Assembly (NCBI GenBank): GCA_022709735.1
Contig: JAKLIG010000001.1
Location: 128,586 to 192,585 of the forward strand
DNA from: Patescibacteria group bacterium
Lineage (GTDB): Bacteria; Patescibacteriota; Minisyncoccia; Moranbacterales; UBA2206
Direction of reading: 5' to 3'
Length of the DNA: 64,000 nt
Made by a program: the position numbers and the translations under genes. Below, one piece after another: positions 5,820 through 31,715 of this stretch. Position 1 is the stretch's first letter; the number at the start of each line of letters is the position of its first letter. Below the pieces are notes generated by a model, which ran no database searches, was not told where the DNA came from, and saw only the letters and a list, made by a program, of their open reading frames with translations.

Positions 5820-6065
5820 ATTGTTTTTAAAATTAAAAAATTAGATAAATAAAAATCCGTCGAGCGGATTAACATTTACTAAATAAGCACAAAAATCCAT
5901 TCTCGACAAATTAAGTCAATGGATATATATCGTTAAAACTGGACCAAGTTTTTTTATTTTTTCTCAAAAGCATAGTTAAATTCTATCAAGAGTGGATTTT
6001 TTTGTCAATTTTGACACTTCGGATTTTTAGTGCTAATCTATAAATTAGTTCAAACTTACGAATTA

Positions 6066-8206: not shown

Positions 8207-8247
8207 AAAACTCGTTCAGCAGATATCTGCTGAACGAGTTTTTTTAT
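8207..8247 (+). terminator. Rho-independent terminator
   Basis: aaaactcgttcagcagatatctgctgaacgagttttttt: 13-bp perfect stem plus T-run. Confidence 0.8.
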
Positions 8248-8352
8248 TGGAATGTTTTAACTTTAATACTTGAGGACAGACTGTGCATAACTTTTTAAAA
8301 ACTGCCTAAAATAGGCGGTTTTTTTTGATATTTTTTAAGTGGCAAGAAAGTG

Positions 8353-8381
8353 TTGACCGATGAAGCGTGGTGGAGTAAAAT
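8353..8381 (+). promoter_or_regulatory. Sigma70-like promoter of the mraZ/dcw operon
   Basis: TTGACC -35, exact 17-nt spacer, TAAAAT -10; about 130 nt upstream of mraZ start. Confidence 0.55.
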
Positions 8382-8418
8382 AGATTTGTAGTATATAAAA
8401 GTGGTGAAAAGTGGAGAA

Positions 8419-8506
8419 TTACGAACTACGAAATTAATACGAAAGTACGAAAATACGAAAAGGGATTTTGAAATGTTTCGTATTTCGTTAATTTCGTAGT
8501 TCGTAA
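8419..8506. repeat. 88-bp inverted repeat built from TTACGAACTACGAAATTA/TACGAAA units, candidate mraZ operator
   Basis: Arm 8419-8437 TTACGAACTACGAAATTAA is the exact reverse complement of 8488-8506; inner TACGAAA direct repeats; lies between promoter -10 and mraZ ATG; the 18-mer recurs at 9510 and 24652. Confidence 0.75.
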
Positions 8507-8513
8507 ATAATTT

Positions 8514-8948
8514 ATGTTTATTGGCGAGTATCAACATTCTATTGATCCGAAAAAAAGATTGGCAGTGCCATCGAAGTTTCGAAGTGATTTGAAAAATAAA
8601 GTCGTGGTAACGAAAGGACTGGATAAGTGTCTCATCATCTATCCAATGAAAGTTTGGCAAGAACTGGCAGAAAAACTCGGAACACTTCCGATTGGAGAAT
8701 CCGCCACGCGAAGTTTTGTTCGTTCAATGCTAGCTGGCGCAGTGGATTGCGAGATTGACAAGCAAGGAAGAATTTTGATTCCAGATTTTTTGCGCGAATA
8801 TGCGGCGCTTGGCAAGAATGTCATCATCGCCGGAGTGTATAATCGCTTAGAAATTTGGGACGAAAAGAAATGGAATGGATACAAGAAGAATGCGGAAAAA
8901 AATACGGATGAAATTGCAGAACAACTGGGTAAATTGGGAGTATATTAG
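8514..8948 (+). CDS. mraZ: Transcriptional regulator MraZ
   Basis: MFIGEYQHSIDPKKRLAVPSKFR... two MraZ/SpoVT-AbrB repeats, first gene of dcw cluster. Confidence 0.9.
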   Translation: MFIGEYQHSIDPKKRLAVPSKFRSDLKNKVVVTKGLDKCLIIYPMKVWQELAEKLGTLPIGESATRSFVRSMLAGAVDCEIDKQGRILIPDFLREYAALGKNVIIAGVYNRLEIWDEKKWNGYKKNAEKNTDEIAEQLGKLGVY

Positions 8949-9092
8949 AAAATAATTTTCAATTATCAATTTACAATTTACAATAAATTTTCAATTAAAT
9001 AATTTTCAACATATTGTTTTATTTGAAAATTGATTATTGATTATTGTAAATTGATTGAAAATTGATTATTGTAAATTGAAAATTAAAACCAG
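8949..9092. repeat. AT-rich imperfect inverted repeat built from CAATTTACAAT / TTTTCAATT units
   Basis: Left arm 8955-9005 and right arm 9030-9088 are approximate reverse complements; same motif at 31673-31715 and inside rsmH 9290-9340. Confidence 0.6.
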
Positions 9093-10094
9093 ATGTCTAT
9101 TCACAAGCCAGTATTGCTAAGCGAAACAATAGAAGCATTAAATCTTAAAAAAGGCGATGTTGTGGTAGATGCGACTTTCGGACAAGGAGGACATAGCCGC
9201 GAAGTATTGAAGAGAATAGGAAGTAAAGGAATAATAGTCGGAATTGATACAGACGAGGATGTTATAAAAAATTTCGCGGAATTTCCAATTTCCAAATCTC
9301 AATTTCCAAATAATTTTCAAATTCCAATTTACAAAAAAGAAAATATTTTTTTAGTCAACAGTAATTTTAATAATCTAGAAATAATTTTAAAAATAATCGG
9401 AATAGAAAAAGTTGATGCGATCCTCGCTGATCTTGGCTGGTCAAGTGACCAGCTCAAAGGAAAGGGAATGAGTTTTCAGGAAGATGAAGAGCTGGATATG
9501 CGATTATCTTTACGAACTACGAAATTAACGAACTACGAAAAAATAAACAGTGAAAACCTAAGCGCTAAAGATATTGTAAATAATTATTCAGAAGAAGAAC
9601 TGGGGAGAATTATTAGAAAATATGGCGAAGAAAAATTTTGGAAAAATATTGCGAGAAAAATAGTTGAATATAGAAAAGATAAAAAAATAGAAAAGACTAA
9701 AGAATTGGCGGAAATTATAAAAACTGCCATTCCGGAAAAGTTCAGGCATACCAAACTAAATCCAGCGACGAGAACTTTTCAAGCTTTGCGAATCGAAGTC
9801 AATGAGGAACTAGAAAATCTGGAAAAATTTATTCCGCAAGCAATCAAAGTTTTGAAGCCGAAAGGCAGACTGGCGATAATCGCATTTCATTCGTTAGAAG
9901 ATAGAATTATTAAAGATAAGTTCCGGGAAAATGCAAGGGGATGCATTTGCCCGCCGGATTTTCCGCAGTGTATTTGCGGAAAAAGTCCGAAGGTTTCAAT
10001 CATCACGAGAAAGCCGATCATGGCCAGTGATGCGGAAATCAAAAACAATCCAAGGTCTAGAAGCGCTAAGCTTCGAGTAATTGAGAAAAAATAA
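9093..10094 (+). CDS. rsmH: 16S rRNA (cytosine1402-N4)-methyltransferase RsmH (MraW)
   Basis: DATFGQGGHS SAM motif, LADLGWSSDQL, DMR motif; 333 aa with two extra in-frame segments derived from repeat families. Confidence 0.9.
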   Translation: MSIHKPVLLSETIEALNLKKGDVVVDATFGQGGHSREVLKRIGSKGIIVGIDTDEDVIKNFAEFPISKSQFPNNFQIPIYKKENIFLVNSNFNNLEIILKIIGIEKVDAILADLGWSSDQLKGKGMSFQEDEELDMRLSLRTTKLTNYEKINSENLSAKDIVNNYSEEELGRIIRKYGEEKFWKNIARKIVEYRKDKKIEKTKELAEIIKTAIPEKFRHTKLNPATRTFQALRIEVNEELENLEKFIPQAIKVLKPKGRLAIIAFHSLEDRIIKDKFRENARGCICPPDFPQCICGKSPKVSIITRKPIMASDAEIKNNPRSRSAKLRVIEKK

Positions 10095-21610: not shown

Positions 21611-21668
21611 ATACTAGCGTTATATCGATAAATGTTATCTTCACAATTAAAATTTATTATATGCAACG

Positions 21669-21694
21669 TTCTCATATTCTGCAGAATATGAGAA
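21669..21694. repeat. 26-bp perfect palindrome TTCTCATATTCTGCAGAATATGAGAA (copy 2)
   Basis: Perfect palindrome 55 bp after hydrolase stop and about 50 bp before ArsR-like gene start. Confidence 0.8.
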
Positions 21695-21744
21695 TATTAC
21701 TATGTTGAATATTTAAATTATTAATAAAAATAAATTACAAAAAA

Positions 21745-22044
21745 ATGCTTGCTAAAAAACGCAAATTTCAAAAAAATGTCAAAACCCCAAAACAAATGGA
21801 GCGACATTTGAAAGGCGTGGCTAACCATAGGCGGATTGAAATACTTTTTCTAATTGCTAGAGAAGAAGGAATCACATTAGATGGTATTTGCGAAGATTTA
21901 AGCTGTAATGTTAAAACTATTTCTGAACATACTAAAAAATTAGTTCAGGCGGGATTGGTAAATAAAAACTACAAAGGTAGGGAAGTGAAGCATTCTCTTT
22001 CTCCATACGGCAAACGCTTTCTAAAATTCATACAAACATTCTGA
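21745..22044 (+). CDS. ArsR/SmtB-family winged-helix transcriptional regulator
   Basis: HRRIEILFLI ... TISEHTKKLVQAGLV HTH pattern; 99 aa. Confidence 0.6.
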   Translation: MLAKKRKFQKNVKTPKQMERHLKGVANHRRIEILFLIAREEGITLDGICEDLSCNVKTISEHTKKLVQAGLVNKNYKGREVKHSLSPYGKRFLKFIQTF

Positions 22045-22071
22045 CATTCTGCAGAATATCAGAATGTTTGT
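22032..22071. repeat. 40-bp near-perfect palindrome ACAAACATTCTGACATTCTGCAGAATATCAGAATGTTTGT (copy 3) overlapping regulator stop codon
   Basis: 13-bp perfect outer arms plus ATTCTGCAGAAT core. Confidence 0.8.
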
Positions 22072-22186
22072 ATATTTAAATTATTGTTTAAATCTTTAAA
22101 TGAATAATAGAATTGTTATTTTATAAAAGTGGTTTTTTGGGAAAATATCGGGTATAATATGGTTAATAAATATAACACTTAAATTT

Positions 22187-24046: not shown

Positions 24047-24649
24047 ATGTCAGAAATATTAGAAAGTCTTTTTGGTTCCAAAGAACGCGCTCGGCTTTTG
24101 CGCTTTTTTCTGCAAAATCCAGAACCGATTTTCAGTTTTTCCGAAATCGTCAAAAAAAATATGCTTAAATCCGGCAAAGCCAGAAATGAGCTGGCCAATT
24201 TAGCCAAGATAAGATTTGTTCTTAGAAGAACCAAAGGCGGAAAAACTTTTTATCAGCTGAACCAAGATTTCAATTTTTATCCGGAACTAAAAAATTTAAT
24301 TGCTAAATCGAATGTTTATCCGCAATGCCAAAGTCTTTCAAAAGTCGGAAAAATCGGAAACATCAAACTCGCTGTGATTAGCGGAGTGTTTATCAATTAT
24401 GCTAAAAGCAAAGCGGATATGATAATTGTTGGAGACGCAGTGAGCAAGGCCAAGCTCAAAAATCTTATGAGCGGATTGGAAGCGGAAATCGGAAAAGAAA
24501 TAAATTTTATGCTTATGACGATGGATGAATTCAAATACCGCCTCAATATGCTGGATAAATTTATTTTGGAATTTTTGGAAGGTCCACACGAGGAAGTGAT
24601 TAATAAAATTCAGGGACTGAAAAGATTTATCGCGCAGAGAAAATTGTAA
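24047..24649 (+). CDS. Hypothetical protein with N-terminal winged-helix-like region
   Basis: ERARLLRFFLQNPEPIFSFSEIVKK resembles wHTH; remainder unrecognised. Confidence 0.35.
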   Translation: MSEILESLFGSKERARLLRFFLQNPEPIFSFSEIVKKNMLKSGKARNELANLAKIRFVLRRTKGGKTFYQLNQDFNFYPELKNLIAKSNVYPQCQSLSKVGKIGNIKLAVISGVFINYAKSKADMIIVGDAVSKAKLKNLMSGLEAEIGKEINFMLMTMDEFKYRLNMLDKFILEFLEGPHEEVINKIQGLKRFIAQRKL

Positions 24650-24651
24650 AT

Positions 24652-24669
24652 TTACGAACTACGAAATTA
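24652..24669. repeat. TTACGAACTACGAAATTA 18-mer (copy 3 of mraZ-operator-like repeat) plus TACGAAA unit
   Basis: Exact 18-mer shared with 8420-8437 and 9510-9527, in spacer before rmuC. Confidence 0.8.
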
Positions 24670-24695
24670 GCGAAATACGAAATTTGTAAAAAAAC

Positions 24696-25784
24696 ATGCT
24701 TTATACACTTTTAACTATACTAATTTTAATAATTGCAGTTTTGCTGTTTTTTGTTTTTGATATGCGCAAAAAAATGGATGGAAGCAAAGAAAATGAAAAA
24801 TCAGTGGCGATTTTGGAGCGTTTGTCTATGATGGCTGAACAAAATCGCGATCTTCGCCGGACGATAGATTCCAAGCTTTCTGAAACTCATCGCGCGACCC
24901 AAGAACAATTGGGCCAATCAATGAGAGTGGCGCAGGGGATTGCCAATCAGTCGGTCAAATCAATTTCTGATATAACTGAAAAACTCACTAAGCTTGAAGA
25001 AACAAACAAGCAGGTGGTCAATTTTTCGGCGCAACTTCAAAATTTGCAGGATATTTTGAAAAATCCAAAGCAAAGGGGAGTGCTGGGCGAATATTTTTTG
25101 GAAGAAACTTTGAAAAATGTTTTGCCGCCAAATTCATACCAAATGCAATATGCTTTCAAGGACGGTTCGATTGTGGACGCGGTGGTTTTTGTTAAAAAGA
25201 AAATTATTCCGGTTGATTCCAAATTTTCCTTGGAAAATTATGAAAAAATTATAAACTGCAAAGACATTATAGAAAAAGAAAAACTAGAAAAACTTTTCAA
25301 GCAAGATTTGAAAAATAGAATTGACGAAACTTCAAAATATATCAAGCCGGAAGAAGACACGATGGATTTTGCTTTTATGTTTATTCCATCCGAAGCGATT
25401 TATTATGATCTTCTGATAAACAAAATTGGAGCAGTGCAAGTTAATACGCGCGATCTCATTGAATATGCTTTTCGCGACAAAAAAGTCATCATTGTTTCCC
25501 CAACCTCATTTTTAGCTTATCTTCAAACTGTGCTTCAGGGGCTTCGGGCGCTTCAGATCGAAGAAAGCGCCAAGCAGATTCGAACTAATGTTGAAAAACT
25601 AGGAAAACACCTGATTTCTTATGAAGAATTTTTGAAAAAAATGGGCAATAGTTTGGGAACAACTGTGAGTCATTTCAATTCAGCTCACAAGGAATTTGAA
25701 AAAATCGACAAAGATATTGCGAGAATCACGGAAGGAGAAAAAAATATCGAGCCGTTAGTTTTGGAAAAGCCTAAAGAGGAGTAA
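24696..25784 (+). CDS. rmuC: DNA recombination protein RmuC
   Basis: N-terminal TM plus coiled coil, GEYFLEETLKNVLP and FAFMFIPSEAIYYDLL RmuC-type motifs. Confidence 0.7.
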   Translation: MLYTLLTILILIIAVLLFFVFDMRKKMDGSKENEKSVAILERLSMMAEQNRDLRRTIDSKLSETHRATQEQLGQSMRVAQGIANQSVKSISDITEKLTKLEETNKQVVNFSAQLQNLQDILKNPKQRGVLGEYFLEETLKNVLPPNSYQMQYAFKDGSIVDAVVFVKKKIIPVDSKFSLENYEKIINCKDIIEKEKLEKLFKQDLKNRIDETSKYIKPEEDTMDFAFMFIPSEAIYYDLLINKIGAVQVNTRDLIEYAFRDKKVIIVSPTSFLAYLQTVLQGLRALQIEESAKQIRTNVEKLGKHLISYEEFLKKMGNSLGTTVSHFNSAHKEFEKIDKDIARITEGEKNIEPLVLEKPKEE

Positions 25785-30799: not shown

Positions 30800-31672
30800 T
30801 TAGATTTCAAAGGAAGCAACGCGCCATTTTCCGGCTAAATCTTTTTGAAATTCAACTTTTGCTTTAGGAAAATATTTTTTGATTAATTTTGAAATTTTTT
30901 GTTTTTGTTCGGGACTAATTTCCAAGATAGCTTTTAGCTTACCTGCCTCGCCGGCAGGCGGGTAGCTTTTAGCTTCTAACTTTTTAATCTGTCGGAATAA
31001 TTTTTCATAGTGGTTTAGTCCATCAATTCCGGAAAGCAAAGCTGATTTTGGTTCAAAGTTTTTAACATCGGGAGAAGTTTTGGAATAAATTATTTCAGAG
31101 AGATAAGGAAGATTGGCGACGATAATTAGTTTGTTAGCTTTTAGCTTTTGGCTTTTAGTAAAAAAATAATTCAATAAATCAGATTGAATAAATTTAATTT
31201 TTTTATCAACTTTATTTTTTTTCGCATTATATTCGGCAACACACAATGCTTTTTTAGAAATATCAATTCCAATAAATTTATTTCTAGTTTTTAAATTTTT
31301 TGCCAAGCTAATTATTATATTTCCGCTACCCGTCCCTAAGTCTATTATTGTGCTGTTTTTTGGGCTTATTTTAAGGACTTCTTCAACTAAATGTTCTGTT
31401 TCTGGTCGAGGGATAAGAACATGCTTGTTCACCTTAAAATCAAGGCCATAAAACTCTTTTTGGCCCAAAATATAGGCAATCGGCTCGTGTTTTAGCCGTC
31501 TTTTTACATACTTCTTAATTCTTTCTTCTTGCTTCTTATTCAAATTGTATTCCGGATGCGCCAAAATAAACTCACGAGACTTTTTTAGGGCGTGAGCGAT
31601 AATTAATTCAAGATCTAAACTATCTAATTTTGAAGAATATTTATTGAAATAATCTTTTATTATCACAACCAA
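30800..31672 (-). CDS. prmC: Release factor glutamine methyltransferase PrmC (HemK)
   Basis: DLGTGSGNIIISLAK SAM motif, VANLPYL (NPPY-type) motif; downstream of prfA. Confidence 0.8.
   Translation of the reverse strand: MVVIIKDYFNKYSSKLDSLDLELIIAHALKKSREFILAHPEYNLNKKQEERIKKYVKRRLKHEPIAYILGQKEFYGLDFKVNKHVLIPRPETEHLVEEVLKISPKNSTIIDLGTGSGNIIISLAKNLKTRNKFIGIDISKKALCVAEYNAKKNKVDKKIKFIQSDLLNYFFTKSQKLKANKLIIVANLPYLSEIIYSKTSPDVKNFEPKSALLSGIDGLNHYEKLFRQIKKLEAKSYPPAGEAGKLKAILEISPEQKQKISKLIKKYFPKAKVEFQKDLAGKWRVASFEI
30929..30975. repeat. GC-rich palindrome ACCTGCCTCGCCGGCAGGCGGGT flanked by 12-bp direct repeat AGCTTTTAGCTT, inside prmC reading frame
   Basis: Palindrome 30941-30963; direct repeats 30929-30940 and 30964-30975; encodes PPAGEAG on minus strand. 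Confidence 0.8.
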
Positions 31673-31715
31673 TTTACAATTTTCAATTTACAATTATTTG
31701 ATCATTGAAAATTAA
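31673..31715. repeat. AT-rich CAATTTACAAT repeat cluster in prfA-prmC spacer
   Basis: caatttacaattttcaatttacaatt... shares units with 8949-9092. Confidence 0.6.

Follow-up and report, generated by a model that had tools for sequence, protein, structure and literature searches.

A TACGAAA inverted repeat ahead of mraZ is probably one copy of a dispersed hairpin family of Candidatus Moranbacteria

In a stretch of 64,000 nucleotides (nt) from a Patescibacteria group bacterium, referred to here as the window, an 88-bp inverted repeat built of TACGAAA units occupies positions 8419–8506, between the promoter and the start codon of mraZ. Is this repeat the operator through which MraZ controls its own expression, or does it belong to something else that came to lie there? 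A preliminary description of the locus had left both answers standing, namely an MraZ box with a small regulon and a mobile mini-repeat that had landed in the operator region. The repeat and its neighbourhood were analysed here. The repeat probably belongs, as one copy, to a hairpin-forming family that is interspersed in genomes of Candidatus Moranbacteria (Patescibacteria) and specific to that lineage. The operator is most likely a pair of GTGG boxes directly upstream, and the repeat most likely an insertion between this operator and the start codon.

The features first described for the element itself held throughout. The outer arms, TTACGAACTACGAAATTAA (8419–8437) and TTAATTTCGTAGTTCGTAA (8488–8506), were exact reverse complements of 19 nt (100% complementary) with 50 nt between them, and complementarity of a further 83% was present in the inner arms. 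Arm A (8419–8461, plus strand), corresponding to positions 1–43 of the family profile described below, was composed of one TACGAAC and four TACGAAA units. The motif TACGAA[A/C] started at positions 8420, 8427, 8438, 8446, and 8454, with spacings of 7, 11, 8, and 8 nt, respectively, within the reported range of 7–11 nt. Arm A was followed by the loop GGGATTTTGAAATG (8462–8475, plus strand), which was particular to the mraZ copy and common only to its orthologue in the relative L071, and by arm B′, TTTCGTATTTCGTTAATTTCGTAGTTCGTAA, with a conserved AT tail (8476–8508, plus strand), which formed the best-conserved part of the family (>90% per column). The element ended at 8506, and 7 nt separated it from the ATG of mraZ at 8514 (mraZ, 8514–8948, plus strand; Pfam PF02381, E = 2.5e-38). 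The promoter TTGACC-17-TAAAAT (8353–8381, plus strand) matched 10 of 12 consensus positions and was kept in all relatives examined. A Pfam search confirmed the flanking genes as those of TypA, MraZ, RsmH/MraW, a penicillin-binding protein, and RmuC. The 18-mer TTACGAACTACGAAATTA recurred as described, at 8419 (+), 8489 (−), 9510 (+), and 24652 (+), with a three-mismatch copy at 9526; these five matches compared with 0.14 expected, and none of 100 shuffles reached that number. Within the window, clusters of ACGAA were confined to the mraZ leader and the rsmH and rmuC loci. Folded as RNA with its flanks, the element gave −37.7 kcal/mol (z = −5.8 against shuffled sequence), and as DNA −27.3 kcal/mol (z = −7.9).

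The operator question was addressed by the published MraZ box, GTG(G/T) with a 10-nt period (PMC12957436; bioRxiv 10.1101/2022.02.09.479790), an operator being defined as a direct repeat of this box at the dcw promoter, three or four times over and with 6 nt between boxes. The pair AAAAGTGGTG AAAAGTGGAG (8397–8416, plus strand), two GTGG boxes repeated directly and in tandem with a 10-nt period, matched the published boxes, fitted this definition, and is most likely the core of the MraZ operator. It directly adjoins the TACGAAA repeat and had been overlooked in the preliminary description. AGTGG-N5-AGTGG occurred once in the window against 0.01 expected. In addition, the GTGG-type sequence GTGGTGGAG (8367–8375, plus strand), a candidate box by the published consensus, abutted the −10 hexamer. 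In the window, MraZ reads MFIGEYQHSIDPKKR...EIDKQGR, and residues D11, K13, R15, D82, and R86, which contact the box in the cryo-electron microscopy structure of MraZ, were all kept.

The upstream regions of mraZ were compared among six MraZ-encoding loci of Moranbacteria and L071, a syntenic relative of the window with ~84% identity (L-numbers name fetched loci of relatives). The MraZ proteins of many Moranbacteria were 81–94% identical to that of the window, and an RsmH-based scan of metagenome contigs gave one close relative only, identical to L071. All relatives kept the promoter, a GTGG[A/G]G box directly ahead of TAAAAT, and the pair AAAGTGG-N3-AAAGTGG, with or without the TACGAAA element. 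What followed the boxes differed. The site was empty in L164/L165 (...GTGGTGAA TTATT ATG), L162/L163 (...GTGGATT ATG), and L051 (...GTGGGGAAT ATG), and these leaders were without any TACGAAA. The window and L071 held the TACGAAA element, L158/L159 a diverged TACGAAT-type insert, L155–L157 an unrelated palindrome of ~165 nt, and L160/L161 ~40 nt of other sequence. Because the relatives all keep the boxes while the following sequence differs, the TACGAAA repeat is best taken as an insertion and the GTGG pair as the operator. The TACGAAA array therefore no longer qualifies as the MraZ box that had been one of the two readings. Its likeness to an MraZ operator is confined to the neighbouring repeat at 8397–8416; it has another unit, laid out in inverted arrays with variable spacing (7, 8, or 11 nt), relatives do not consistently have it ahead of mraZ, and, with ~109 copies in the sampled Moranbacteria DNA, it is not unique to the dcw promoter. 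MraZ autoregulation would act through the GTGG boxes and not through the TACGAAA element. Placing the operator at the GTGG pair, as in Bacillus and Mycoplasma, corrects a plausible mis-annotation and extends the conserved logic of the MraZ box to the Candidate Phyla Radiation (CPR).

Two further observations concerned the same leader. The insert ahead of the mraZ ATG in L155–L157 reads ATCCCGCAcAAAATT...AATTTTTGCGGGAT and contains a nested GC hairpin in L157; the MraZ proteins of these loci were the closest to that of the window (92–94% identity). Hairpin inserts appear to favour the slot between operator and ATG. Several database entries of Moranbacteria MraZ are 148–167 residues long instead of 144, which suggests that gene callers may have extended the open reading frame (ORF) into a leader insert.

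The exact 18-mer was scanned over a genome collection holding one genome per species, with the window's own genome outside it. It was found at 85 loci, ~70 of them in at least 16 assemblies of Candidatus Moranbacteria, Moraniibacteriota, or Parcubacteria, and two assemblies held 19–22 exact matches each. The 15 single matches in unrelated phyla were about the number expected by chance. Ten full copies served to build a profile, with which nhmmer detected 109 distinct copies in ~650 kb of fetched DNA; 67 of these copies were full length. The elements measured about 86–120 bp and consisted of two arms of 7–8-nt TACGAAA units around a variable loop, with the near-invariant termini TTACGAAC...GTTCGTAAAT. 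The consensus was TTACGAA[C/A]TACGAAAT[T/A]AATAC[T/G]AAATACGAAAGTACGAAAA, followed by the variable loop, GTTTCGTATTTCG[T/C]TAATTTCGTAGTTCGTAA, and AT. In the right flank, 51 of 55 copies had A at the first position and 43 of 55 had T at the second. The termini were identical between species of 35% and 44% GC. Some variants were long (~105 nt), some consisted of a solo arm, and others were interrupted by a GC-rich palindrome nested in them; orthologous copies differed in unit number.

Viral contigs contained a single bare 18-mer and no element. No Rfam 15 family reached its gathering score; the best matches were plant microRNA-precursor hairpins at 26 bits against a required ≥80. Full-text literature searches gave no paper on such repeats or on miniature inverted-repeat transposable elements (MITEs) in Moranbacteria or Patescibacteria, and the family is apparently undescribed so far. 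The 18-mer matches in L028 (Chitinophaga), L040 (Chitinophagales), L035 (Fibrobacter), and L042 (Calothrix) lay inside tandem arrays of TTACGAA, TTACGAG, and TTATGAA. Judged by these sequences, arrays of 7–8-nt units may be wider than Moranbacteria.

Most copies were intergenic, and 8 of 110 candidate copies lay inside ORFs. The densest loci, with 8 copies in 8 kb, were the spc/alpha operons of ribosomal proteins, where elements occupied the junctions rplX/rplE, rplF/rplR, rplR/rpsE, rpsE/rplO, secY/adk, adk/map, rpsM/rpsK, and rpsD/rpoA. These copies, found in L045, L079, and L073, began a few nt past one stop codon and finished 0–11 nt ahead of the next start. In L045, adk (6035–6053) and rplX (~300–330) ran into an element arm, and a TAA inside the arm served as the stop codon; the insertion therefore replaced the original C-terminal codons. 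The rplX/rplE site was filled in L045, empty in L003, and reduced to a TTCGTAA remnant in L079. Among the 67 full copies, 48 lay between co-directional genes, with 33 running from A to B′ along transcription and 15 in the opposite direction. Nearness to a start codon was downgraded as a sign of function, because the spacers are only ~10–20 nt long and any insertion in them lands beside an ATG. Integron-like cassette arrays were also considered for the dense loci and were ruled out, these loci being ribosomal-protein operons; the R″/R′ cores (RYYYAAC/GTTRRRY) of integron attC sites differ from the termini TTACGAAC/GTTCGTAA.

Within the dcw operon, the window had the leader copy and a copy inside rsmH, L071 had the leader copy and one at the rsmH/ftsL junction, and L051 had the rsmH/ftsL copy only; copies were not detectable in L157 and L160–L165. 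The rsmH copy was an arm-only block of 36 nt (9510–9545, plus strand), inserted in frame after the DMR motif as 12 codons (LRTTKLTNYEKI). Neither the closest RsmH (L071/L086, 68% identity) nor any other RsmH in the alignment had this insert. Its stop-free frame, LRTTKLTKYE, was common to the arm fragments inside a FemAB-like gene of L004 and a ~1000-residue ORF of L026, and the full element carries stops in every frame. The third locus in the window was a solo B′ arm, or half element (24652–24684, minus strand; profile positions 54–86), between an ORF at 24047–24649 and rmuC (24696–25784). The idea that the rsmH and rmuC copies mark a small MraZ regulon did not survive the finding of ~100 copies scattered irrespective of promoters, within operons and coding sequence and beside a tRNA. 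The two observations that the preliminary description had singled out as telling against an MraZ box, namely scattered copies and relatives whose mraZ regions lack TACGAAA, were thus both made. Its alternative, a mobile mini-repeat, was borne out in so far as the element is a dispersed repeat that lies, as an insert, between the operator and the start codon.

Two side observations touch these gene-internal and solo copies. A tandem array of AATTTCC at 9283–9335 was a second in-frame insertion in rsmH, encoding FPISKSQFPNNFQIPI, and the closest relative was without it. A solo arm abutted the 5′ end of an apparent tRNA gene (GCCGATGTGGTGAAATTGG...GGTTCAAGTCCCACCATCGGCACCA) in L016 (7761–7795) and in L033 (1895–1929).

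In the transcript, the element would be part of the mraZ mRNA and would form a long hairpin by pairing with itself. On either strand, T prevailed in the left flank of the copies and A in the right, whereas an intrinsic terminator would show the reverse. The mraZ hairpin should not terminate transcription, because its flank is A-rich and a U-tract is lacking; the GC-rich hairpin with U-tract that defines an intrinsic terminator was not found at the element, and a terminator scan gave calls at 8207–8242 and 8297–8323 and none at the element. A promoter scan found none inside it. A core Shine–Dalgarno (SD) sequence was present at −18 to −4 in 3 of 58 genes of the window, below the random background of 8.9%, and leaders were A/U-rich. 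The genome is essentially SD-less. Translation would start without an SD from short A/U-rich leaders, and pairing within a self-sequestering hairpin would not extend to the 7-nt AU tail or the AUG. The self-folding insert ahead of the ATG is probably tolerated, and near-neutral for mraZ expression, because the genome is SD-less and the tail and AUG stay unpaired. The same tolerance would let copies persist between ribosomal-protein cistrons.

Other roles at the level of expression were considered and set aside. A split SD, in which GGAG (8413–8416) would be brought to the AUG by the hairpin, was ruled out, since core SD sequences occur in so few genes (3 of 58) and GGAG is part of the second MraZ box. 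An SD in the loop with a mini-ORF at 8473–8499 (MFRISLIS*) was examined as a case of translational coupling; an SD combined with NTG occurred in 5 of 32 start-abutting copies against 7 of 32 others (p = 0.75). A −10 box upstream that would make the hairpin the 5′ end of the mRNA was unconvincing for AT-rich spacers, with TAnnnT at 33% against a whole-sequence background of 13%. A few copies have TGnTATAAT 3–4 nt upstream.

As to its origin, the copy would have entered the mraZ leader in an ancestor shared with L071, between the GTGG operator and the ATG, leaving both intact. The family may have spread through an enzyme acting on the conserved arms, as do MITEs and the hairpin-forming doublets (REPINs) of repetitive extragenic palindromic (REP) sequences, or through recombination between copies, or both. 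The features of MITEs were present in the size of 86–120 bp, the exact 19-nt terminal inverted repeats, and the dispersal of 67 full copies over at least 16 assemblies. Copies are flanked by T...AT, and a duplication of TA, T[TA]CGAAC...GTTCG[TA]A, is possible, unproven by filled/empty pairs.

A second element was nested in the first. A GC-rich palindrome of 42–44 nt (CCCGCCTCGCGTCGAC...GTCGAGGCGGG) was found inside TACGAAA elements, always at the TA/CG step of a unit, in L002 (6842–6885), L006, L007, L020, L038, L052, L076, L084, and L085. It was also free-standing in L026, L033, and L047, and its arms gave 31 matches in 17 loci. Its precise insertion at TA/CG argues for mobility at the DNA level of at least this second element.

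Several results weigh against the reading of the repeat as a copy of a mobile family. No transposase-like, multi-copy, or bracketed ORF was seen in the 85 8-kb loci carrying the 18-mer, the filled/empty pairs gave no clean target-site duplication, and two "empty" sites retained a (G)TTCGTAA remnant. Furthermore, the element was better conserved than its surroundings. Between the window and L071 it was identical at 86 of 89 positions (96.6%), against 75.8% for the 150 nt upstream, 79.7% for the promoter–operator region, 84.6% for the mraZ coding sequence, and 66.2% for third codon positions; the difference between element and surroundings gave p = 9e-6 and 5e-9 in Fisher tests. Over 10 orthologous pairs, identity was 93.5% in arm A and 96.8% in arm B′, compared with 80.2% in the flanks and 81.6% in the loops. 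Change therefore accumulates in the loop but hardly in the arms, and a purely passive or selfish element does not explain their conservation at orthologous sites. The bias of orientation along transcription (33:15) hints at some selection at the RNA level. Arm conservation is predicted both by sequence-specific selection, through recognition by a protein or an RNase, and by gene conversion among copies.

The conserved arms raise the possibility, on the whole an unlikely one, that the element is a module used by the host, its arms being recognised sequence-specifically and its mraZ copy modulating the level or the translation of the dcw mRNA. Such a module could be a double-stranded RNA site for processing or stability in leaders and between cistrons, like the RNase III sites of phage T7 or the Correia elements, or a binding-site array for some TACGAAA-binding protein. 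Arm identities of 93–97% at orthologous sites against ~80% in flanks and loops would follow from such use, as would identical termini in species of 35% and 44% GC, the 33:15 orientation, a G·U pair at one stem position in 19 of 28 copies in sense orientation, and the keeping of copies at the same ribosomal-protein operon junctions in two genomes. However, both orientations occur, presence is polymorphic at housekeeping sites among close relatives, and solo arms, arm fragments in coding sequence, changes of unit number, and units split by palindromes all survive. Covariation within the family was uninformative, the stems being invariant, and offered nothing in favour of a module; Rfam gave no match, and gene conversion among ~50 copies could yield the same pattern of arm identity. 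A wider form of the idea is a little more doubtful still. It would make the TACGAAA hairpins domesticated RNA or DNA modules of the SD-less Moranbacteria, placed in leaders and between cistrons (most ribosomal-protein junctions and the dcw leader), where RNase III or a dedicated protein would recognise them and set mRNA processing, stability, or cistron-specific expression. Such recognition would show itself in arms that are conserved and loops that drift freely.

Growth in place is improbable. It would dispense with transposition and derive the elements from seeds by slippage of 7–8-nt units and template-switch palindromes in AT-rich spacers, the likeness between copies being due to convergent expansion and recombination. 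The common architecture of unrelated units (TACGAAA, TACAAAA, TACGAAT, CAATTTA, and AATTTCC), the polymorphic unit number, the (G)TTCGTAA remnants at "empty" sites, and the failure to find a target-site duplication or a transposase are all as such growth would have them. It cannot, however, yield exact 18–19-nt termini, a fixed arm order, and an asymmetric bulge in more than 60 full copies from at least 16 assemblies; moreover, truly empty mraZ sites have no seed, and the 36-nt rsmH block appears at once relative to the closest relative.

That the TACGAAA array is the autoregulatory operator of MraZ, with the rsmH and rmuC copies as a small regulon, can hardly be right: its place between promoter and mraZ ATG, its makeup of short repeats, and the recurrence of the 18-mer far over chance are outweighed by its absence from L162–L165 and L051 and its replacement by other inserts in L155–L161 while GTGG boxes stand in all, by published boxes that are direct GTG(G/T) repeats of 10-nt period with the contact residues K13, R15, and R86 kept, by units in inverted arrays spaced 7–11 nt, and by ~109 copies that reach into ribosomal-protein operons and coding sequences.

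Arrays of other units were observed besides the TACGAAA family. A sister hairpin filled the 144-nt mraZ–rsmH spacer of the window (8953–9085), with tandem 7-nt units CAATTTA/CAATTTT on one side and TAAATTG/AAAATTG on the other; its arms of 43 nt were 81% complementary, and it folded at −32.9 kcal/mol (z = −4.4). The mraZ–rsmH spacer measured only 1–3 nt in L160 and L164. Words related to this hairpin were found at 31671–31694 of the window, in L017, and in L071. A sister element at rpsH/rplF in L045 (1679–1802) had TACAAAA in all units of one arm and TTTTGTA in those of the other, and it folded at −31.7 kcal/mol (z = −6.9). Both arms had changed and the element still folded; pairing was therefore preserved despite the change of unit. 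TACAAAA tandems were present in 9 loci. Two perfect palindromes without a loop, at 21663–21700 (arms of 19 nt) and 22026–22077 (arms of 26 nt), shared the core ATTCTGCAGAAT and lay upstream of small ORFs; from their sequence they look like operators.

The reading of the mraZ repeat as one copy of a dispersed family matters for what it implies of these genomes. Genomes of Patescibacteria, ~1 Mb in size, usually count as streamlined and as containing little mobile DNA; here a hairpin family was present in them at high density, with copies that have inserted in frame into essential genes and that in turn receive a second palindrome nested within them. Arms better conserved than neighbouring coding DNA point to strong concerted evolution or to unrecognised control of expression in organisms not yet cultured. 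The interest of the family rests on this unexpected density of repeats in streamlined CPR genomes and on the unexplained conservation of the arms. In practice, such repeats can break assemblies of metagenome-derived genomes and mislead gene callers.

Among known systems, the early mRNA of phage T7 has RNase III hairpins between its cistrons. These irregular, internally bulged hairpins of 60–90 nt stand in the intercistronic spaces just ahead of the next start codon, and their likeness to the Moranbacteria elements is one of layout only; the latter occur in both orientations and as fragments. The Rickettsia palindromic elements (RPEs) are, like the Moranbacteria elements, a palindromic family of a reduced genome that adds peptides in frame, as seen here in rsmH, L004, and L026. 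RPEs are translated as whole elements in frame, whereas in Moranbacteria only arm fragments stand in frame, through the single stop-free frame LRTTKL..., the full element has stops, and most copies are intergenic.

Parallels are also found in REP sequences, bacterial interspersed mosaic elements (BIMEs), and REPINs of Proteobacteria, with their REP-associated tyrosine transposases (RAYTs). Both families have palindromic units that occur singly or as hairpin-forming inverted doublets, as do the full hairpins and solo arms found here mostly between genes, and both lie within operons without a terminator tail, with high uniformity within a genome; REP elements make no target duplication, and no clean one was seen here. 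In contrast, the units of Moranbacteria are AT-rich tandem octamers and not GC-rich REPs, and some copies lie in coding sequence. No gene for a RAYT (Y1 transposase) was seen near copies in the fetched loci, and no genome-wide search for it was made. The Correia elements of Neisseria (Correia repeat enclosed elements, CREE) duplicate TA, carry a site for integration host factor and parts of promoters, and are cut by RNase III. The Moranbacteria arms differ from them in sequence and in being arrays of 7–8-nt units, and no promoter was found in the element. Both families consist of non-coding elements of ~100–150 bp that end in terminal inverted repeats and are dispersed in many copies; these often adjoin or enter transcription units and vary in presence between strains, and the co-transcription as hairpins that marks Correia elements is predicted here as well. 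By its sequence features, the Moranbacteria family would belong with the MITE, REP, Correia, and RPE kind of element, with a sequence common to none of them.

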